A stretch of 64,000 bases of DNA, from NCBI GenBank assembly GCA_018716885.1, contig DVJI01000013.1, forward strand, positions 10,794 to 74,793. Direction: 5' to 3'. The number at the start of each line of letters is the position of its first letter. The first letter of the stretch is position 1. Below are positions 658 through 25,394 of this stretch, piece after piece. Below the pieces are notes generated by a model. That model saw nothing but the letters and a program-made list of their open reading frames with translations. It made no database searches and was not told the origin of the DNA. The DNA comes from Candidatus Enterousia intestinigallinarum (GTDB taxonomy: Bacteria > Pseudomonadota > Alphaproteobacteria > Rs-D84). Both the position numbers and the translations under genes were made by a program.

Positions 658-1020
658 TTAGTTACCAGAAACCTGACGACACATAGTACACATAGCCGAT
701 GTTCCAGACGTTGTTGAACGCCGTATATAGCACTCCCCCGTATTTTCCGTCGGGGCACAAGACGAATAATATTGGTTATATTCGCCACGCTCATCAGATT
801 CTGCTGCCGCTGTACGTGAACAAGTTTGTACACCACTGGTGTTGGTTGTTAAACTCCAGCCATCTGGACACGACAAAATTGTTCCTGTATATCCGGCCTC
901 GCAACAATATCCACTGAAACAACTGCCCAGACATTGGGACAAATCATTACATATCTCTGCATACGATATATACGGCCACCCAGAAACCAAGCCCAACAAA
1001 AATAAAAACCTTATTTTCAT
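658..1020 (-). CDS. Small secreted Cys-rich protein, family member 2 (divergent)
   Basis: Signal peptide MKIRFLFLLGLVSGWPYISYA. RBS agggg. Motifs CEAGYTG, SCPDG, GECYI. In tandem with member 1. Confidence 0.5.
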   Translation of the reverse strand: MKIRFLFLLGLVSGWPYISYAEICNDLSQCLGSCFSGYCCEAGYTGTILSCPDGWSLTTNTSGVQTCSRTAAAESDERGEYNQYYSSCAPTENTGECYIRRSTTSGTSAMCTMCRQVSGN

Positions 1021-1667: not shown

Positions 1668-2090
1668 TTATTGGTCTTGGTCACACCAACTATCGCGGCG
1701 GCCACCATCATACGGCCGCCCAAATTTTTCATTTATTAAAATTCTGGACACGTCGCGCCCGTCGGACGTAAAAACACGCGCATCTATGCGCCCCAAATAT
1801 TTGTCATCGGCAACATCACGTAAATCAACCGTTGAGCCAACCGGCAGCAGTTCCGCCAACCTGTCGCGTGCACGCAACGCCATTTCTATTTCGCGTTCAC
1901 ATTTTCCATTGATTTCCGGCGTATCAACATCCGCCAATCGTACACGTACGGTTATTGTTATATCTTCATCCAATAAAACACGTGCGGCAAACGTATCACC
2001 GTCAAGAACATAATCAACCGTCGCAGGCACCGCAGCGGCCGAAAACATCAAAAAACACGAAAAACAAATTCCCGCAACAATGCGCATCAT
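1668..2090 (-). CDS. Secreted thermonuclease (SNase-like) family protein
   Basis: Signal peptide present. DGDTF...RLADVDTPE...GRY: conserved SNase motifs. Confidence 0.7.
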   Translation of the reverse strand: MMRIVAGICFSCFLMFSAAAVPATVDYVLDGDTFAARVLLDEDITITVRVRLADVDTPEINGKCEREIEMALRARDRLAELLPVGSTVDLRDVADDKYLGRIDARVFTSDGRDVSRILINEKFGRPYDGGRRDSWCDQDQ

Positions 2091-2092
2091 TA

Positions 2093-3412
2093 TTATGGCA
2101 ACCGCGGCGACCAGGTCGGTTCAACACCGTTCACCCCGTCCGGCAGTTCTATTTCATATATATTGCGCCCGGTGATATCAACACTGCGAATATGACTGAT
2201 GCGTTCGATACCGTCCAAGGCCTTTTCTGTTTCATAATAGACAACACGACGCGAACCGGGTGCCCAGGACGGCGCCTCCATATACCAGCCACCGGCCAAT
2301 ATTTTTTCATTTCGCCCGCGCGGGTCCATAATACCGATATAAAATGTATCATCTGCAATTTTGGTAAATGCGATAAATTTGCCGTCCGGCGACCAGGCCG
2401 GTGTTGCATACCGCCCCGCCCCGTATGTTATACGTTCAACCCCGCCGCTTTCCAAATCCAGAACATAGATTTGCTGATTACCGCTGCGATCGGAATTAAA
2501 TGCCATTTTTTTGCCGTCAGGTGAATAAGACGGACTGGTATTCAGCGAATGTCCAAACGTCAACTGACGCAAAGATTTTGATTCTATATCGTACTCATAT
2601 ATATGAGTTATGCCATTTTTAACCAAAGACAATGCAATCTTTGTCCCATCTGGCGAAAACCGTGGCGCAAAATTCATTCCACCAAACTGTCCCAAACGAC
2701 GCTGTTCCCCCGTTTCCAAGTCCAATGTCCAAACCATCGGATCGTCGTCACGGAAAGACAAGAACACAATCGTCTGCATATTCGGCGAAAAATGCGGCGA
2801 CATAACAAAAGTATCCGCATCAGACAAATAGCGCAACCCATAGCCGTCCTGGTCCATAATTGCCATACGCTTTACCCGATTATTTACCGGGCCACTTTCG
2901 GCAATAAATACAATTTGAGTATCAAAATATCCCACTTCGCCCGTCAAGCGCTCATAAATTGCATCCGCCATAATATGCGCCAGACGTCGTGCAGATTTCT
3001 TTGACGCAACCAAACTTTGTGCTTCGATTTGTTCCCGGCCATTGACGTCCCAGACATAAAATTCCAAATTATACCGCCCGCCGGATTCGGCTGATAATTT
3101 CGCCTGAACCAGAACCTGGGCCTTTACCGCGCGCCATAATGTAAAGTCCGGCATTTTGCCCATTTCAACAAATTCCGGCAACGCATCACGCGCCACTATG
3201 CGGAAAAGTCCCGTTGATTTCAAATCAGCATCAACAACATCACGTATCATTTCTGCATCACGTGCAGAAACATTTCCAACAGTTTCTATTTTTTGAACAG
3301 CCACAGCAATCGGTTCAACACCACCGGCAATAATATCAACCTTCAGTTCCGCACGCGCCACACCAATAAAGGCAAAACACATAACAACCAGTGTCAAAAA
3401 CTTTTTAATCAT
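2093..3412 (-). CDS. tolB: Tol-Pal system beta-propeller protein TolB
   Basis: Signal peptide MIKKFLTLVVMCFAFIGVARA. TolB N-domain plus repeated WSPDG/FSPDG propeller blades. Confidence 0.85.
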   Translation of the reverse strand: MIKKFLTLVVMCFAFIGVARAELKVDIIAGGVEPIAVAVQKIETVGNVSARDAEMIRDVVDADLKSTGLFRIVARDALPEFVEMGKMPDFTLWRAVKAQVLVQAKLSAESGGRYNLEFYVWDVNGREQIEAQSLVASKKSARRLAHIMADAIYERLTGEVGYFDTQIVFIAESGPVNNRVKRMAIMDQDGYGLRYLSDADTFVMSPHFSPNMQTIVFLSFRDDDPMVWTLDLETGEQRRLGQFGGMNFAPRFSPDGTKIALSLVKNGITHIYEYDIESKSLRQLTFGHSLNTSPSYSPDGKKMAFNSDRSGNQQIYVLDLESGGVERITYGAGRYATPAWSPDGKFIAFTKIADDTFYIGIMDPRGRNEKILAGGWYMEAPSWAPGSRRVVYYETEKALDGIERISHIRSVDITGRNIYEIELPDGVNGVEPTWSPRLP

Positions 3413-3607
3413 AATTGTAAATCCTTTCCACAATATAATTTGTATGTAATTTTATATGTATCTTATTCAAATTGCAAGAAATCGCGCCGATTATTCCACC
3501 CCCACAACATAAAATATAGGCCCGCCCCACCCCACAATACACCCGACCACACACCCGCCATCACAACCGTGATTACAACCGTATTTACGGCCGCAATTAC
3601 AAATGTA

Positions 3608-3635
3608 TTGACAAATGTCAATACGATGATATAGT
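3608..3635 (+). promoter_or_regulatory. Sigma70-like promoter with palindromic operator (TTGACAaatgTCAA)
   Basis: ttgaca-N16-tatagt. The -35 hexamer is part of an inverted repeat ttgacaaatgtcaa. RBS aggaga precedes the 3681 start. Confidence 0.5.
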
Positions 3636-3680
3636 CAGTTGTAAGTACGGCGGTATTGCCGACTGTATAGGAGACAGTGT

Positions 3681-3908
3681 ATGCCAAACGTAATGCAACA
3701 ATTGTTCATAATGAACATCGAAGCACTGCTGAAAGAATACGCGGCCTATCGCGCATTCAATAAATCGGACAGCGTTATAAATATGCGTATCCCACACCAG
3801 ATATTGGAACGCATAAAAAAACTGGCCGAGGCACAACACGTCCCATACCAACTGTTGATATCATCGGTTTTATACTCGCTGGTAAGTGCCGACGAATCCC
3901 AACAGTAA
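3681..3908 (+). CDS. Ribbon-helix-helix (CopG/BrnA-like) DNA-binding protein
   Basis: 75 aa. NMRIPHQILERIKKLAEAQHVPYQLLISSVLYSLV resembles BrnA/CopG-family antitoxins. Confidence 0.5.
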   Translation: MPNVMQQLFIMNIEALLKEYAAYRAFNKSDSVINMRIPHQILERIKKLAEAQHVPYQLLISSVLYSLVSADESQQ

Positions 3909-3927
3909 CTAAGTCCAGGAGGCAAAT

Positions 3928-4878
3928 ATGGCGGCGCATAATAAATCAAAAAACACATTTGATTTTCTGCAAAGAAACACCCATCGTGTCAACGAAGCAT
4001 ATGCGTATCAACTGCCCCTGACCCCGAACCCACATCCCTATAAAAATGATTCCCAATATTGGCTGTTTTCAGATTTATATAATTTGTTTGGCGGTCAATA
4101 TGTGGGACGCCATAAAGACATAGATAACACTATGCAAACGGCGATTACGTTTTCAGATTTTGAAAAATTGCCGCGCACAAATGCAGATAAGATTTCACGT
4201 CCAAACAGTTTTATCGATTTTTATTCCGGACACGTTGTAACCATCGCAAACGATTACAATATACACGAAGCATCAGGTACAACAATCACACGAAAAAACG
4301 GCCCCGACGCCAAACTTAGCCGGTATGCCTGTTGGGCGATGATGAAACGCTGGCCGTCACGCATTTTTGCCCAGCTGTACTTTATAATGCCCGATACAAC
4401 ATTTGAAGCCCTGTATAACGCGGCATATAAATTTTCCAGAATATACCAGCGCGCCGAACTGTCACGCGCCGAAAAAATAATCAACGGCATCGCATACAGA
4501 CACAATGCGAATATGCGTCAAGTTCACGCAAAAATGGATCGGGCATTCTTTTATATATCCGACACAGATACTATACGCGACGCATATGAAATATCTGGTT
4601 CATTACTGGACTATATGGGCGCCCGTTCATTAATGGCGCGCCGTATTGCGCTGGACAACGCAATACAAAAGTTTGATTCCGCCCACCGTGTGACATTTGA
4701 CACTTTTATGGACATTCTGTACGAAGAATTGATTCGGGCCCGCATCAATATGTCACGCCAAACCGACCGCACGCCAGAGGCAGACATATCACGCACGCCC
4801 ATATCACGCATCACCAGCGATTTGAAAAAACTGGAACGACAATTTATAAATAAATACGCATTTCAAAATTTAAGATAA
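3928..4878 (+). CDS. Hypothetical protein, 316 aa (possible antirepressor/ORF6N-KilA-N-like N-domain)
   Basis: RBS aggagg. Follows the RHH gene by 19 nt. No confident family assignment from sequence alone. Confidence 0.4.
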   Translation: MAAHNKSKNTFDFLQRNTHRVNEAYAYQLPLTPNPHPYKNDSQYWLFSDLYNLFGGQYVGRHKDIDNTMQTAITFSDFEKLPRTNADKISRPNSFIDFYSGHVVTIANDYNIHEASGTTITRKNGPDAKLSRYACWAMMKRWPSRIFAQLYFIMPDTTFEALYNAAYKFSRIYQRAELSRAEKIINGIAYRHNANMRQVHAKMDRAFFYISDTDTIRDAYEISGSLLDYMGARSLMARRIALDNAIQKFDSAHRVTFDTFMDILYEELIRARINMSRQTDRTPEADISRTPISRITSDLKKLERQFINKYAFQNLR

Positions 4879-4934
4879 ACAAACAAACAAATAAATGGGG
4901 CGACCAAACGGCCGCCCTATTTTTACTTATCTTA

Positions 4935-5312
4935 TTATCTGCCCCAGTTCAAAATCACATTTTCACAGCCAATCAATCCCAATCCGGCCGACGACAAGAA
5001 GAACTGTAACACTATACCGATACCGAATAACAAAACGAATCCAACCAGCATTCCGGTTCCTTTCTTTTGCAGGTCATCCATTTTAACTTCGCCCTTGGAT
5101 ATATAACCCCACGCCCATCCAGCGATAATGAACGCCGCACCAACAAACGCCAGGGTACGCAAAATCTGAAATACCCCGTACATTTGACCAATCAGATCAC
5201 ACAACCCGGAATTATTTACCCCACCAACACCGGCCGGCGCCGCCATTGCCGCAGACGCACCCGTTAAAACAACGATTCCGGCGAATCCCAGTTTTTTTAA
5301 CAAATTCTTCAT
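4935..5312 (-). CDS. Small membrane protein, TrbC/VirB2 pilin-like
   Basis: Start MKNLLKK. Signal-like N-terminus ending AMAAPAG, then two hydrophobic helices separated by KGEVKMDDLQKKG. Confidence 0.35.
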   Translation of the reverse strand: MKNLLKKLGFAGIVVLTGASAAMAAPAGVGGVNNSGLCDLIGQMYGVFQILRTLAFVGAAFIIAGWAWGYISKGEVKMDDLQKKGTGMLVGFVLLFGIGIVLQFFLSSAGLGLIGCENVILNWGR

Positions 5313-5428
5313 ATAAATCCCCTTTTCTTTTTCTATAATTTTATCATAATTTTGACGCCTGTGCAACGACATAAACAAATAAAAAGGCGGTGCCAGATTG
5401 ACACCGCCGTATATTTGCCAATGTAAAA

Positions 5429-5818
5429 TTACATAGCAGGAACGATAATATATCTGCGTTTCAGAACCGGCTGTGCCGCATTACAAGAACTGCAGGAAAC
5501 CTGTTCCACCTTGGCATCACAAGAATTGCACGGAACTTCTTGGGCGGCCGGAACCAGAATCTGGCGATCGTGACGCGGCGCCTGGCCAAAGTTATCAATA
5601 GCATACAAATCTTCGCAACGGGTATTGCGGTACACAATCTTTTTGCCGTTATCAATACCGCTTACATAGCGCGAGAAATTACGACCATATTCACCAGCAT
5701 AATAGATGCAATCCTGACCATCTTGAGTGTATCTGACGCCACCCTTGTAATAATCATAATATGCGCCACAACCCGCCAGGGACGTCAGCGCGATTACAGA
5801 AACCAGAACTTTTTTCAT
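5429..5818 (-). CDS. Lipoprotein, hypothetical
   Basis: Lipobox LAGC. Cys-rich C-terminus. Confidence 0.5.
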   Translation of the reverse strand: MKKVLVSVIALTSLAGCGAYYDYYKGGVRYTQDGQDCIYYAGEYGRNFSRYVSGIDNGKKIVYRNTRCEDLYAIDNFGQAPRHDRQILVPAAQEVPCNSCDAKVEQVSCSSCNAAQPVLKRRYIIVPAM

Positions 5819-8561: not shown

Positions 8562-8583
8562 TAAATAGCATAAGAAAATATAT

Positions 8584-8676
8584 ATGCCGAAAACAAACCA
8601 CCGATTAAAATCGGTGTTTTTATTTTTGAAAAAATCCCGAATTTCTGCATTTTTTTACTCTCCATTTTTGCCGAAA
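8584..8676 (+). repeat. Conserved 93-nt 5' cassette, copy B
   Basis: 100% identical to 1124..1216. Confidence 0.9.
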
Positions 8677-9267
8677 AAAATTGGTCAATTCATATCAGCG
8701 ATAATAATTGCCACAACAATCGCAACGCCCGCTATGGCGTTCAAAGATTACAAATGCGGCTGTGGTTCACACTCTGATTTATATAATCGCCCGACCTGCT
8801 ATGCACCGCCAGATTATTTAACAGAATACTGTATAGTAAGTAAAACAAACGATACATTCACATACCGTGTACCAGACGGTATCAACGCCAAAGCGTGCAG
8901 TTTATGCTGGTGCTACGGATATACCGACAGCTGGCGTAGCGGTACCAATGGCGCCCTTGTCCGTACCGTATATACAGCCAAAGACACAAGCGCCACCCAA
9001 TGCGACTATTCATATGAAGACGAAGCCGCCTGTAATTCTGGATATTATGGATTACACGAGCCAGATTTCATGGTATACGCATGCGAGGAATGCCCATGGC
9101 TAGAAGATAAATACGGCACAATGCTGCACGGTTGGACAGAATACGCGAACACAAACACCGATATTACAGATTGCTATATAAGAAAAGAAGATACAGCCAC
9201 CGGTGTATGGTTTGAAGATGACACGGGTCAATACGCGATAACCGATGATTGTTATTATTCACTGTAA
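8584..9267 (+). CDS. Small secreted Cys-rich protein, family member 4
   Basis: ORF-track ATG at 8584. Alternative TTG start at 8668 gives signal peptide MPKKIGQFISAIIIATTIATPAMA. Motifs CNSGYYG, CEECP, ITDCYI, C-terminal DCYYSL. Confidence 0.6.
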   Translation: MPKTNHRLKSVFLFLKKSRISAFFYSPFLPKKIGQFISAIIIATTIATPAMAFKDYKCGCGSHSDLYNRPTCYAPPDYLTEYCIVSKTNDTFTYRVPDGINAKACSLCWCYGYTDSWRSGTNGALVRTVYTAKDTSATQCDYSYEDEAACNSGYYGLHEPDFMVYACEECPWLEDKYGTMLHGWTEYANTNTDITDCYIRKEDTATGVWFEDDTGQYAITDDCYYSL

Positions 9268-9328: not shown

Positions 9329-10447
9329 TTACATACGCATCGGCATCAATACGAACAATGCGTCTGTGTTTTTATCCGTTGACTTGATGATTGTCGGCGA
9401 TAACGGATCCTGCATTTCCATTTGGAATTTTTCACCTTCTACCTGTCCAGCAACATCCATCAAGAATTTTACATTAAACACAACCGTAAATGAACTGTCA
9501 CCATTGTATTCAATATCCAGTTCCTGGGTTGCAGTTCCGGCATCCGGGCTGGACGCATTTACAACCAACTTGTTCATAGAAAATGTCAACTGTACGGACT
9601 TGGTCTTGTCCACACTGGCAACCGACACCAAGTCAACCGCATTCAAGAACTGTTTTCTGTCCAGGATTGCAATCTTGTCATTACCCTTTGGAATAACAAC
9701 CCGATAGTTCGGATACTGTGCATCAACCAGTTTGCTGGTCAATGTTGCGGGGCCAACCGTAAAACGGGCCTTGGTATCCGACAGTTCAACAGTAACATCG
9801 TCAACAGTCGCATCTTCCAACAGTTTGGACAGTTCACCAATAACGCGACGTGGCAAAATAACCGCTGGCATTTCCGCACTGCCCGCCGGTGCCGGCATCG
9901 CGCACAACGCCATACGCTGAGCATCGGTTGCAACCGCAGTCAGCATTTTTTCTTTGCCCTCGTCAGAGATATGAAAATAAATCCCGCCCAAATGATAACG
10001 GACATCATCGGTCGGTATTGCAAACTTTGTCTGATTTATCAGGTGCGCCAAGTCACCAGTTGTCATTTGGAATTTTGTGGTCAGATTGCTGCCCGCCATT
10101 GCCGGGAAATTTTCCGCCGGCAGTGTCGGCAAATGGAACACCGCACGACCACTGGACACAACCAGTTGATCACCAGATTGTTTGAACGAAATTTCCGCAT
10201 CGTCTGGCAATTTACGCACAATGTCGTACAACATTTGTACCGGGACAGTTGTTTTCCCACCCAAAGTTATATCTGCGGCAACGTGCTCTACCAATTCCAA
10301 ATCAACGTTTGTTGCCGACAGAATCAAATCGTCTGCAACCTCTATCTTTACATTTACCAATATCGGCAGCGTTGCGCGCTTTTCCACAATCGACTGCATA
10401 TGCCCCAGCGCACGAATTAAAACCTGACGAAATACTGAAAATTCCAT
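9329..10447 (-). CDS. dnaN: DNA polymerase III beta sliding clamp
   Basis: 372 aa with three-domain clamp architecture. Confidence 0.9.
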   Translation of the reverse strand: MEFSVFRQVLIRALGHMQSIVEKRATLPILVNVKIEVADDLILSATNVDLELVEHVAADITLGGKTTVPVQMLYDIVRKLPDDAEISFKQSGDQLVVSSGRAVFHLPTLPAENFPAMAGSNLTTKFQMTTGDLAHLINQTKFAIPTDDVRYHLGGIYFHISDEGKEKMLTAVATDAQRMALCAMPAPAGSAEMPAVILPRRVIGELSKLLEDATVDDVTVELSDTKARFTVGPATLTSKLVDAQYPNYRVVIPKGNDKIAILDRKQFLNAVDLVSVASVDKTKSVQLTFSMNKLVVNASSPDAGTATQELDIEYNGDSSFTVVFNVKFLMDVAGQVEGEKFQMEMQDPLSPTIIKSTDKNTDALFVLMPMRM

Positions 10448-23983: not shown

Positions 23984-24365
23984 TTGTTTTCTCCTTTCCT
24001 TCCCTTCAAAAGAGTTTCCCGTCGCCGCGCAAGAGTATAAAAATCACCTGCACATAAACGCTAAATTTTACTGCGACCACATACTTATATATATATTCGC
24101 AACATAAAAATTTAGTGTTTATGTATTGCCCTACTTTTAACTCTCTCGCTTTTGTTCGGTGTGATAACAATTTTATTTGTCACCCCGCCGATTTGTTTGA
24201 TTGGGATTGCTCTCAATCGTTTTGGATACGTCAAATAAGTTAAATGATATATCCCGTTTTGCAACCAATTGTTAAATGAATTTTGAACATTTATTTTTTG
24301 ACAACGATTCGTTTTTTTGCCAGATTTCCGCGGTTTGTATATACAATGTATAGACAAGATTTTTT
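23984..24365. other. Candidate oriC region upstream of dnaA
   Basis: AT-rich 380-nt intergenic region with imperfect DnaA-box-like 9-mers (tgtgataac, ttggatacg). Confidence 0.25.
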
Positions 24366-25394
24366 TCACGCGCGAACATATCCACCGTCAACTTTTCGCA
24401 CTAAACCCCGCAATTCCAAAATAACCAATTCTGTTTTTATTTCCGAAATAGTTTTTTTGACAATTTCTGACAATACAGATTCAGACACAGGAATTGTTCC
24501 CAACGCATCAAGAATTAAATTTTCCGAATCGAAATTTTTATCAATTTTTTTCATATCGGACAGATTTTTATCCGATTCAAAAAAATCTGACGGCCCACTG
24601 CACAATTTCGCAGCACCAGATTTTATCAGCATATTCGGCCCAGCCGCCCGGGAATCCGACGGGTGTGACGGGATTGCCCAAATTTCCCGATTCGATTCGT
24701 ATGCGAATCGGGCGGTTTTCATACTGCCTGATTTCAAATCTGCTTCACCCAGAATCAATTTTTGGCCAATACCAGCAATCCATCTATTTCGCATAACAAA
24801 GTTTGACGCCACTGGCGTAAATCCGACTGGCATTTCACTTATCACCGCGCCACGCGCCACAATTTCCCAATATAACGATTCGTTTTCCATTGGCCATATA
24901 TAATCCACCCCACCGGCAACAACGGCGATTGTTTGCATATCACCAGCCACACGCAATGCACCACGATGCGCCGCCGCATCTGTTCCCATCGCCATTCCTG
25001 ACACAACCGCTGTTCCGTGCGATGCGAACGCGTGCGCGATTTGTGCGGTTAAATTCATTCCAGCCGCGGTCGCGTGACGCGTACCAACGATTGCCACAGT
25101 CGGCCGTGTCAATGTCATAACATTACCACGCACACATAAAACCGGCGGATGCAACTTCATCGCGCGCAGTGCGGGCGGGTATTCCGGCATATCGTCACAT
25201 ATATAATGTACGCCCAGTTCATTAGCACGCGCCATTTCACGCAAGACCCGATCCCGCATACCCACATCCGCCCGCAGGGACGCCGCCGCGTCAAACACAT
25301 TGCCAAAGCGTTTAATCAATTCGCTGTAATGCGCCGGCCCGATATTCGGTGTGCGCAATATCAACAATCGATTAAAAAGTTCGTTATTTTCCAT
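24366..25394 (-). CDS. dprA: DNA processing protein DprA (Smf)
   Basis: Rossmann-like DprA domain and C-terminal winged helix. Confidence 0.85.
   Translation of the reverse strand: MENNELFNRLLILRTPNIGPAHYSELIKRFGNVFDAAASLRADVGMRDRVLREMARANELGVHYICDDMPEYPPALRAMKLHPPVLCVRGNVMTLTRPTVAIVGTRHATAAGMNLTAQIAHAFASHGTAVVSGMAMGTDAAAHRGALRVAGDMQTIAVVAGGVDYIWPMENESLYWEIVARGAVISEMPVGFTPVASNFVMRNRWIAGIGQKLILGEADLKSGSMKTARFAYESNREIWAIPSHPSDSRAAGPNMLIKSGAAKLCSGPSDFFESDKNLSDMKKIDKNFDSENLILDALGTIPVSESVLSEIVKKTISEIKTELVILELRGLVRKVDGGYVRA

Follow-up and report, generated by a model that had tools for sequence, protein, structure and literature searches.

A conserved ribbon-helix-helix protein, a phased 12-bp repeat array and a divergent DinD-like gene in a putative repressor-controlled operon of Candidatus Enterousia

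A 64,000-nt stretch of DNA from Candidatus Enterousia intestinigallinarum, hereafter the window, contains a two-gene operon in which a gene for a 75-aa ribbon-helix-helix (RHH) protein is followed by a gene for a 316-aa protein, and the locus raises the question of whether this pair is a mobile cassette or a resident operon of its host lineage. A preliminary description read it as a mobile-element or defence-type module with its own promoter-operator, inserted next to tolB. We lean towards another reading, namely that the operon is ancient and vertically inherited in Rs-D84/Ca. Enterousia, and that the RHH protein represses it and sets the dose of a DinD-like protein. The locus is a variant of kinds already known and overturns no current idea.

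The gene order at the locus is tolB, the RHH gene, the large gene and a gene for a small membrane protein; fbaA, efp, ppa and dnaN are close by, and the operon is divergent from tolB (Table 1). A 19-nt gap containing AGGAGG separates the RHH ORF from the 316-aa ORF, which lies where it had been described, as does the terminator, which the operon shares with the membrane-protein gene converging on it. Among the flanking genes, tolB is confirmed by a family match and the 129-aa gene 3' of the operon, which had been called a lipoprotein gene, carries a lipobox, whereas the 'pilin' label given to the 147-aa membrane protein is backed by no library match.

Table 1. Positions of the features of the operon in the window.
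Feature	Position	Strand	Remarks
Repeat array	3545-3676	+	Eleven phased 12-bp units, 132 bp; lag-12 autocorrelation, TRF period 12
Extended palindrome GTATTGACA-AA-TGTCAATAC	3605-3624		Array units 0 and 1; core TTGACAAATGTCAA at 3608-3621
Sigma-70-type promoter	3608-3635	+	TTGACA (3608-3613), 16-nt spacer, TG-extended TATAGT (3630-3635)
Small 5'UTR hairpin	3648-3661	+	CGGC / loop GGTATT / GCCG; covariation; tentative
75-aa ribbon-helix-helix protein	3681-3908	+	PF12441 match; GGAG at 3670-3673
316-aa protein, divergent DinD-superfamily member by remote homology	3928-4878	+	AGGAGG at 3917-3922
Terminator hairpin	4898-4917		GC-rich, T-runs on both sides; listed for the - strand, the + strand reads GGGCGACCAAACGGCCGCCC then TATTTTTAC

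The comparison covered 69 complete loci, drawn from 58 genomes at species level that all belong to one lineage with reduced genomes of about 0.75-1 Mb (Ca. Enterousia, order Rs-D84). Both ORFs are intact in 69/69 complete loci, the gap between them is -4 to 34 nt in all of these loci, and the pair lies beside tolB at the same site in every one, across about 58 species, which does not support its description as an inserted module. In the relatives examined, the 316-aa gene keeps its place as a core gene in a context without signs of mobile genetic elements, an outcome that had been named beforehand as one that would refute the preliminary reading. A comparison of presence and absence at this site, which had been proposed as a check, finds the pair in all 69 complete loci and the large gene lost in one sister lineage. 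No tRNA genes lie within 14 kb of the operon, no att-like repeats were found flanking it, no integrase-type Pfam families occur among the called neighbour genes of the loci, no phage genes neighbour the pair in any locus, and no plasmid copies of the pair were found. IMG/VR contains no RHH relative and, for the large protein, no close one, and viral contigs encode only DinD-type relatives that are 22-26% identical to the large protein. Insertion of a mobile element was rejected in view of the fixed synteny and the lack of tRNA genes within 14 kb, flanking att-like repeats, plasmid copies and close viral copies. The 128-nt direct repeats at 1110-1237 and 8570-8697 bracket the region but were rejected as att sites, because they represent the 5' ends that two Cys-rich paralogues have in common; tolB, fbaA, efp and ppa lie between the two copies. 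A nearby replication origin was likewise rejected, as the GC skew shows no sign change, though dnaA and dnaN both lie in the window.

The two proteins of the operon evolve at very different rates. Identity to the proteins of the window is 70-100% for RHH, 74-90% for TolB, 88-96% for EF-P and 30-59% for the large protein, and dN/dS is approximately 0.024 for RHH, 0.077 for TolB and approximately 0.23 for the large protein. The RHH gene is present in 76/76 related loci, and 43 of the 75 residues of its product are invariant. No gene of the neighbourhood evolves faster than that of the large protein (22-59% identity overall). RHH still shows 80-83% identity in the sister clade, against only 22-26% for the downstream homologue. 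In one sister lineage, the large gene is cleanly deleted, and the RHH gene (product 80% identical), the promoter and the array are intact. Judged by these comparisons, RHH evolves like a housekeeping protein, and the large protein is a dispensable, rapidly evolving accessory passenger. The deletion lineage indicates that RHH has a function of its own for which the large protein is not needed; because RHH is retained where the large gene is lost, it is not merely the antitoxin of that gene. A dN/dS of 0.02 and survival without the large gene together call for an RHH role beyond autorepression.

That the small protein is an RHH of the BrnA/CopG/Arc type is supported. Pfam PF12441 (CopG_antitoxin) matches residues 25-64 above its cut-off of 28 bits (E 3.7e-9, 37.6 bits), the Pfam search also returns a weak Arc match, and the protein matches phrog_582, described as 'Arc-like repressor'. 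RHH is built from an invariant N-terminal helix (residues ~4-26), the strand SVINMRIP and two helices. The INMRIP part of the strand fits the pattern N-x-R-x-P, which is the pattern of the DNA-contacting ribbon of Arc in the Arc-operator structure. The AF2 model of the monomer shows the expected helix pattern at low confidence (pLDDT 62.8), as would be expected of an obligate dimer. These matches suggest that RHH is most likely an Arc/BrnA-type repressor.

For the large protein, no Pfam family matches at E <= 1, Bro-N (PF02498) included. The NCBIfam DinD model (NF008573) matches it with an E of 4.6e-6 and 26.2 bits, far below the 242-bit cut-off. In an hhalign comparison with E. coli DinD, the DNA damage-inducible protein D (97.9%, E 6e-13, 176 columns), residues 36-237 of the 316-aa protein align with residues 13-206 of DinD, and the DxxLSRYAC motif lies inside the aligned stretch. 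DinD residues 13-105, within this stretch, carry Pfam Bro-N, which bears out the earlier impression that the N-terminal half is Bro-like. A profile of the orthologues of the 316-aa protein finds P0147 and P0153, both of which score above the DinD cut-off. The AF2 model has a pLDDT of 91.8, and in the protein a Bro-N-like alpha/beta domain at the N-terminus, presumably DNA-binding, precedes a C-terminal domain made up of helices only. The best PDB match by Foldseek is Deinococcus DdrC (7qvb, 7udi and 8u0g; probability 0.96, ~200 aligned columns), with nothing at E <= 0.001 against the PDB and BFVD; PDB sequence searches with the RHH and large-protein profiles gave no meaningful match. By remote homology, the 316-aa protein is a very divergent member of the DinD superfamily. 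E. coli DinD inhibits RecA on duplex DNA, an activity that may not transfer to the 316-aa protein; by homology, the most likely targets of the DinD-like protein are DNA or RecA-DNA complexes.

The large protein also matches two families through its C-terminal part: PADLOC PDC-S13 (E 2.4e-12, residues 122-307 against profile positions 80-274 of 281) and PHROG phrog_8036 (E 8.3e-12, residues ~121-308). The PADLOC match, together with the fast evolution of the protein, would suit an anti-phage role equally well. It gives the defence-type reading of the preliminary description a weak link, whereas a toxin-antitoxin or abortive-infection insert is unsupported. The neighbourhood is conserved and of housekeeping character in all loci and is not a variable defence island, and literature searches on PDC-S13, on DinD with RHH and on DinD in defence found nothing relevant.

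A type II toxin-antitoxin or abortive-infection system, in which RHH would be both antitoxin and autorepressor and the 316-aa protein an effector freed on phage attack, would account for the membership of RHH in the Pfam CopG antitoxin family, for the NCBI names of its orthologues ('BrnA antitoxin family' or CopG antitoxin), for the tight two-gene operon with a strong promoter and an operator, and for a large protein that matches PDC-S13 and evolves fast. However, the NCBIfam BrnA model gives RHH only 17.3 bits against a cut-off of 60, and no ORF for a BrnT-type toxin occurs in 3300-5500, in agreement with the preliminary description. RHH is far more conserved than its presumed partner, and neither RHH nor its N-terminal helix has changed appreciably in the lineage that lost the large gene. 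The only variable segment of RHH is a short acidic tail of 6-15 residues, unlike the toxin-binding extensions of typical antitoxins. In addition, the pair keeps one syntenic position in about 58 species and bears no mobile-element marks, and phage DinD-like genes share their expression with a repressor and have no antitoxin of their own. We consider a toxin-antitoxin system improbable.

Phages and viral contigs have Bro-N/DinD-like genes immediately downstream of a repressor gene of the CI or Cro/CI type, in the same orientation, and a repressor gene followed by a DinD-like gene is therefore a recurrent arrangement. The operon might be read as a domesticated remnant of a prophage immunity region resembling arc-ant, with RHH as the repressor and the large protein as an antirepressor or antagonist, either of RHH or of another repressor, in a feedback switch. 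The gene order, with a small Arc-like RHH protein encoded ahead of a ~300-aa protein of the Bro-N type and a single, strongly repressible promoter for both, is in keeping with such a remnant, and so is the position of DinD-like genes next to repressors in phage immunity regions. Against it, no ANT/KilAC or P22_AR domain was detected with Pfam, RHH operates in one lineage that lacks the large protein, and neither the viral sequences of IMG/VR, with their lack of RHH and close large-protein relatives, nor the surroundings of the loci, all free of phage genes, point to a phage source. An arc-ant-like origin is accordingly no less doubtful to us than a toxin-antitoxin system.

The promoter of the operon matches 11 of the 12 consensus positions and is the best promoter-like site within 3300-5500; transcription would start near 3642. 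As the preliminary description had it, the -35 hexamer lies inside the core palindrome, both being where they had been placed, and both hexamers are invariant in 64/64 distinct orthologous upstream sequences. Perfect copies of the palindrome are confined to the nearer half of the clade, and the distant half has GTATTGACAAnTGTAWWTACAATG at this site. The idea of a promoter-operator is upheld in a wider form, in that the promoter lies within a conserved repeat array that had been missed and of which the palindrome is one part. In the window, the first to sixth units of the array are GACCACACACCC, GCCATCACAACC, GTGATTACAACC, GTATTTACGGCC, GCAATTACAAAT and GTATTGACAAAT, and the seventh to eleventh are GTCAATACGATG, ATATAGTCAGTT, GTAAGTACGGCG, GTATTGCCGACT and GTATAGGAGACA. 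The cross-species consensus of the 12-bp unit, GTAWWKACAAYY, is a small TGT..ACA dyad, which forms a TGTAWWKACA pseudo-dyad with the preceding base. The -35 hexamer sits in unit 0 and the -10 hexamer in unit 2, and the array spans the promoter, the 5'UTR and the ribosome-binding site and is kept in every species.

The periodicity of the array stands out from the rest of the window. Its base autocorrelation at lag 12 reaches 0.58, where the mean over the window is 0.274 (sd 0.05), and this is the strongest lag-12 signal of the 64 kb, the second-best being 0.44; at lags 12, 24 and 36 the values are 0.58, 0.54 and 0.48, compared with ~0.27 at other lags. The 12-bp periodicity is found in 68/68 orthologous loci (0.46-0.58 vs 0.25-0.33), and each of the units -5 to +5 carries 11.6-21.8 bits of information, vs 3.6-5.8 bits elsewhere in the intergenic region. 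In the sister clade, the length of the array differs by precisely one 12-bp unit. The RHH start fixes the position of the array, which lies 74-78 nt from the ATG although the whole intergenic region measures anything between 180 and 322 bp. Scans for further phased sites with the exact motif and with a PWM found none above shuffles in the 64 kb, which is ~7% of a genome (array 31.6, elsewhere <=11.9, shuffle maximum 13.4). We presume the array to be a multi-site operator. An array look-alike upstream of dnaA (24334-24360) was rejected as a second RHH target, since it is not significant. The array was also rejected as a coding repeat, the antisense ORF 3463-3687 being interrupted or frame-shifted in many species, and as a known RNA, Rfam giving no match there.

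There is weak evidence for a small hairpin in the 5'UTR, the loop of which is the conserved core of array unit 4. Its covariation is 0.316, compared with 0.227 for shuffles (0/500 reach 0.316) and <=0.129 for slid controls, and one of its pairs occurs as CG in 19, GC in 14 and UA in 9 cases. The consensus energy is only -1.29 kcal/mol, and the unit bearing the hairpin is wholly absent in the sister clade.

It is very improbable that RHH and the 132-bp iteron-like array are primarily a chromosomal nucleoprotein device, either a centromere-like or organising site of the ParR/parC or ParG/parH kind or a controller of the divergent tolB operon, with the DinD-like gene riding along on the promoter: eleven phased direct units around RHH's own promoter, like those of parC in plasmid R1, the standing of the array as the sole such site in 64 kb, the housekeeping-level constraint on RHH, its retention alone with the array, and its ParG-like size and layout (N-terminal segment plus RHH, 75 aa) would fit, but no gene for a partner NTPase (ParA/ParM/TubZ) occurs in any locus and the position of the array is tied to the RHH start, not to tolB.

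In the reading that we favour, an inherited operon under its own repressor, RHH dimers would bind side by side to the eleven 12-bp-phased TGTA..ACA dyads, and the filament of protein and DNA so formed would silence transcription of both genes of the operon. We infer both the binding of RHH to the array and repression by this binding from the features described above. The DinD-like gene appears to be controlled by RHH, and the level of RHH would set the dose of the DinD-like protein. The geometry of the filament is speculative, because the 12-bp spacing is off the helical repeat. A bolder view, which we think rather unlikely, is that RHH and its array are a lineage-specific, near-essential nucleoprotein device of these ~1-Mb genomes, either a centromere-like or organising site or a master switch, which does not depend on the large gene, and that the DinD-like protein represents a general, hitherto unrecognised 'repressor-coupled' class of DinD/Bro-N proteins, encoded behind CI repressors in temperate phages and behind RHH here and perhaps directed against RecA or incoming phage DNA.

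The locus is an annotation trap, as RHH is publicly labelled a 'BrnA/CopG antitoxin' yet appears to act as a core, ultra-conserved DNA-binding protein in a lineage of genome-reduced gut bacteria with few regulators left. Its eleven phased 12-bp dyads are a cis element directly open to experiment. The large gene widens the poorly understood DinD family by a very divergent branch, and the repeated wiring of DinD-like genes behind repressors may help to explain the purpose of DinD proteins.

Compared with known systems, the operon shares with BrnTA an RHH protein that matches PF12441 above the cut-off, but its partner gene is downstream, dispensable and unrelated to BrnT, and RHH is conserved without this partner. 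RHH proteins are known to coat direct-repeat arrays at their own promoters, as in ParR/parC of R1, ParG/parH of TP228, omega of pSM19035 and CopG. The phased repeats described here likewise overlap the RHH promoter, which would imply cooperative binding of multiple dimers; unlike in those systems, the unit is 12 bp long and is itself a small dyad, no NTPase or zeta-type partner is present, and the site is a single chromosomal one in a genome of ~1 Mb. In the immI region of P22, arc-ant consists of a small RHH autorepressor gene, an operator overlapping a strong promoter, and then the gene of a ~300-aa protein of the Bro/KilA/Ant world. The operon resembles it in having a small Arc-like RHH gene followed by a gene for a ~300-aa protein, and differs in its eleven phased units, where Arc has one 21-bp operator, and in its ancient, chromosomal location outside any phage.

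For the large protein, PDC-S13 and PHROG 8036 are unnamed families, the match to which is restricted to the C-terminal two thirds. Deinococcus DdrC, a DNA-binding protein of the DNA-damage response, is similar to the model of the 316-aa protein by fold, at an E of 0.05 and TM-scores of 0.29/0.40 and without sequence similarity, and serves as a lead only. The phage pairs (Pasteurella phage Pmp14 and IMG/VR L080, L100-L103 and L107) also have a repressor gene directly before a gene for a ~280-aa Bro-N/DinD-like protein; their repressor is an HTH protein of the CI type, with or without an S24 peptidase, in a prophage context instead of an RHH protein, and their DinD-like proteins are only 22-26% identical to the 316-aa protein. 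E. coli DinD is similar in length and two-domain layout and is expressed under a repressor, as the 316-aa protein appears to be. Unlike E. coli DinD, the 316-aa protein has an extra N-terminal helix and a ~45-residue insertion, and its gene appears to be controlled through its own RHH gene rather than by LexA and is fixed and syntenic in one reduced-genome lineage.

The region can be read as a single compact operon, in which a promoter matching 11 of 12 consensus positions is followed by the genes for the ribbon-helix-helix (RHH) protein and the large protein. The sequence-level features of the preliminary description (promoter, palindrome, 75-aa and 316-aa ORFs, 19-nt gap) are all present in the window; the flanking tolB gene is confirmed, and the 129-aa gene downstream has a lipobox. 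The name 'pilin', given to the 147-aa membrane protein, is unsupported. The RHH protein is of the CopG type as proposed, matching Pfam CopG_antitoxin (PF12441) above the cut-off, and it also weakly matches Arc and Arc-like phage repressors.

Features of the operon, its surroundings and the compared loci (positions are those of the window unless a locus of a related genome, phage or IMG/VR contig, L004-L107, is named)
Feature	Position	Strand	Detail
Cys-rich ORFs, secreted-looking	275-640; 658-1020	-	
Direct repeat, two copies	1110-1237; 8570-8697		128 nt, 89% identity
Cys-rich ORFs with common leader	1124-1657; 8584-9267	+	30-residue N-terminus MPKTNHRLKSVFLFLKKSRISAFFYSPFLP
SNase-like ORF	1668-2090	-	140 aa, directly 3' of tolB
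tolB		opposite to operon	divergent
12-bp array	3545-3676		eleven units in register, consensus GTAWWKACAAYY
Palindrome	3605-3624		TTGACAAATGTCAA, extended over these positions to GTATTGACA-AA-TGTCAATAC
-35 hexamer	3608-3613		TTGACA
-10 hexamer	3630-3635		TATAGT, TG-extended, 16-nt spacer
Unit-4 hairpin (tentative)	3648-3651 / 3658-3661		CGGC / GCCG, flanking conserved GTATTG of unit 4
RHH ORF	3681-3908	+	75 aa, ATG start, GGAG 7 nt 5' of ATG
RHH-large gene gap			19 nt, AGGAGG inside
Large ORF	3928-4878	+	316 aa
Terminator hairpin	4898-4917		GC-rich, common to operon and convergent membrane-protein gene
Lipoprotein gene			downstream, 129 aa, lipobox
Segment without relatives' extra genes	4935-5818		
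Relatives' extra-gene segment	L004 9486-13329; L005 9491-12574; L007 9485-11886; L010 9497-13045		
dnaN	9329-10447		
dnaA	22703-23983	-	
Look-alike of two array units	24334-24360		TTTGTATATACAATGTATAGACAAG
dprA-like ORF	24366-25394		
Repressor + Bro-N/DinD-like pairs, temperate-phage context	L079 2468-4085; L080 4049-5675; L101 4382-5672; L107 4484-5750; L102 3453-5442; L100 3556-5744		
RHH start in divergent relative	L078 60-110		TTG, …GTATTTGCCAAATGTAATG…

The palindrome, previously described as a typical operator, corresponds to units 0 and 1 of an array, but its perfect form is restricted to the nearer half of the clade and the array is larger. In the 160 bp 5' of the RHH start, lags of 12, 24 and 36 give base autocorrelations of 0.58, 0.54 and 0.48, compared with about 0.27 at other lags, and TRF likewise reports a period of 12. 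The lag-12 signal is the highest in the 64 kb (mean 0.274, sd 0.05; runner-up 0.44), and the periodicity is kept in 68 of 68 orthologous intergenic regions. Each unit together with the preceding base forms a small TGTA..ACA pseudo-dyad, and the register places the -35 hexamer in unit 0, the -10 hexamer in unit 2 and the Shine-Dalgarno sequence in unit 5. Information content across species amounts to 14.5-21.8 of 24 possible bits in units -1 to +5 and to 11.6-13.3 bits in units -5 to -2; nearer tolB the same spacer, used as an internal control, has only 3.6-5.8 bits per 12 nt. The distance from the start of unit 0 to the RHH ATG is 76 nt in 48 of 64 sequences, and the sister-clade array is shorter by exactly one unit (64 nt). 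No other phased sites were found in the 64 kb (array score 31.6; best elsewhere 11.9; shuffle maximum 13.4). One segment 5' of dnaA, adjoining the 3' end of a dprA-like ORF, resembles two array units; it does not exceed shuffled controls in a PWM scan, and the resemblance may be due to chance. A coding repeat was rejected as the nature of the array, the antisense ORF across it being broken in many species, and no Rfam family matched in the array. In unit 4, the variable bases beside GTATTG tend to complementarity with covariation above controls, a tentative hairpin whose helix has only 3-4 pairs and negligible energy and whose unit is missing in the sister clade.

The compared loci argue against the earlier proposal of an inserted mobile or defence module. 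Homologues of the large protein, 31-99% identical and without exception about 300-320 aa long, sit on contigs of uncultured gut Alphaproteobacteria, Candidatus Enterousia. This genus belongs to the order Rs-D84, with genomes of about 0.75-1.0 Mb (PMC12306168); one circular MAG of the compared set has 958,618 bp. The order tolB, RHH gene, large gene and small membrane protein is found in all 70 fetched loci (58 species-level genomes plus metagenome contigs), with fbaA, efp, ppa and dnaN nearby. In each of the 69 loci not ended by a contig edge, both ORFs are intact and lie -4 to 34 nt apart. No tRNA genes occur within 14 kb of the operon, no att-like repeats flank it, and the called neighbour genes include no integrase-type Pfam families. 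A search of 72,556 plasmids gave no match to the large protein, and in IMG/VR the RHH protein has no relative and the large protein only relatives of 22-26% identity. The pair is thus syntenic in a non-mobile context, the very pattern named beforehand as refuting a mobile module, and the mobile or defence story fails.

Several other features of the neighbourhood were observed. The direct repeat comprises the common upstream region and N-terminus of two cysteine-rich ORFs, which, with two more nearby, look like a paralogous family of surface or secreted proteins with a conserved leader. The SNase-like protein (Pfam SNase, E 1.6e-4) has a signal-like N-terminus and keeps its position after tolB in all relatives. 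In relatives, the stretch from the lipoprotein gene to fbaA contains genes for a 422-446-aa protein and one to four unannotated tandem paralogues of roughly 143-173 aa, none of which is found in the corresponding window segment; this segment beside the conserved operon is copy-number-variable. Although dnaN and dnaA both lie in the window, no replication origin is evident in positions 1-64000: of 32 bins, 28 have negative GC skew and the remaining four (32-40 kb) do not exceed +0.05, and the cumulative skew curve has no turning point.

We compared the evolutionary rates of the operon and its neighbours. Identity to the window is 87-100% for DnaN, 88-100% for EF-P, 74-100% for TolB, 70-100% for the RHH protein and 30-59% (99% within species) for the large protein. 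Nei-Gojobori dN/dS over 162 locus pairs (TolB dS 0.05-1.2) is about 0.024 for the RHH protein, 0.077 for TolB and 0.23 for the large protein, with many dS values near saturation and less diverged pairs concordant; median dN over all pairs is 0.10, 0.14 and 0.70, respectively. The large protein is therefore functional, yet the least constrained of the neighbourhood, while RHH constraint equals or exceeds that of housekeeping proteins. In the RHH protein, 43 of 75 residues are invariant, including the entire N-terminal helix and the strand INMRIP, and variation is confined to a short acidic C-terminal tail. In the sister clade (TolB 73-74%, EF-P 87-89% and DnaN 84-90% identical to the window, the 84% being a truncated 97-aa match), the RHH protein occupies the same slot at 80-83% identity. 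Some members have behind it a homologue of 304-309 aa that shares only 22-26% identity with the large protein of the window (hhalign 98.5%, BLASTP E 1e-15). In one lineage (loci L072-L074), RHH gene, promoter and upstream repeats are intact and lead directly to the terminator and membrane-protein gene, the large gene being cleanly missing. Because the large gene is present in both major clades, its absence here is most simply a loss, and the RHH protein does not depend on it. A toxin-antitoxin or abortive infection pair, in which the RHH protein would neutralize its neighbor, is quite improbable given the fixed synteny without mobile-element signs and the far lower dN/dS of the RHH protein than of the large protein; the chief argument against it is that an RHH protein still 80% identical after its neighbor's loss is unlike an antitoxin that solely neutralizes that neighbor. 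The array is equally conserved in the lineage that lacks the large gene, indicating that its binding partner is not the large protein, and the RHH protein is the obvious candidate.

Three independent routes link the large protein to E. coli DinD. It matches NCBIfam DinD (E 4.6e-6), and a profile of 28 orthologues aligns with E. coli DinD over 176 columns (97.9% probability, E 6e-13), the two having the motif D..LSRYAC in common. When 1.84 billion representatives were searched exhaustively by profile, 498 matched at E <= 0.001; the 67 at E <= 1e-30 are mostly near-full-length and orthologue-like, and ten sampled weaker matches include two proteins above the curated DinD cut-off (P0147 and P0153) as well as Bro-N-positive proteins. 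The 'Bro-like N-half' described earlier finds indirect support, since the aligned stretch covers the Pfam Bro-N domain of E. coli DinD (residues 10-105), but the large protein itself matches no Pfam family. Its AF2 model is confident (pLDDT 91.8, pTM 0.86) and consists of two parts, an N-terminal alpha/beta domain and, over residues 159-310, long helices. Foldseek against PDB and BFVD gave nothing significant, the best PDB match being the Deinococcus DNA-damage protein DdrC (E 0.05). Further matches of the large protein are PADLOC candidate PDC-S13 and PHROG 8036, both families of unknown function. In the more divergent relative L078, whose large protein (P0101) is the member nearest canonical DinD, the RHH gene starts with TTG, so that the gene caller began it 10 residues late.

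A repressor gene followed by a DinD-like gene is a recurring design: Pasteurella phage Pmp14 carries a DinD-like Bro-N gene directly 3' of a CI-like repressor gene on the same strand, and IMG/VR contigs of several distinct lineages likewise carry one 3' of CI-type HTH+S24 peptidase or Cro/CI-type HTH genes with gaps of 25-94 nt. In such pairs the DinD-like protein is co-produced with the lysogeny repressor and has no dedicated antidote. E. coli DinD is reported to inhibit RecA on duplex DNA, and by analogy the phage proteins might modulate RecA-dependent induction.

The reading we favor, at slightly better than even odds, combines RHH autorepression through the array, a DNA-directed DinD-like accessory factor and a separate RHH role. 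RHH dimers would bind the phased dyads cooperatively and occlude the promoter and 5'UTR, and transcription of both genes would be held low and self-limiting. The rapid divergence and occasional loss of the DinD-like protein fit a role in which it meets foreign DNA or recombination better than they fit a core process, and the RHH protein would need an additional role important on its own. A domesticated phage switch resembling arc-ant, in which the large protein would serve as antirepressor, is quite unlikely, as there are no Ant domains and no phage context. A centromere-like or tolB-controlling nucleoprotein site is slightly less likely still, because an NTPase partner is absent and the position of the array is fixed relative to the RHH start rather than to tolB.

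The array and an RHH protein able to stand without its partner are concrete, testable and unexplained. A literature search found no paper on the pairing, the eleven-unit array, the RHH conservation or the divergent DinD branch. The parts are of known kinds, namely an RHH autorepressor that has several phased sites and a member of the DinD/Bro-N family; the pairing of RHH and DinD-like proteins, the array of eleven 12-bp units, the extremely high conservation of an 'antitoxin-family' RHH protein in a reduced genome and the very divergent DinD branch are new.
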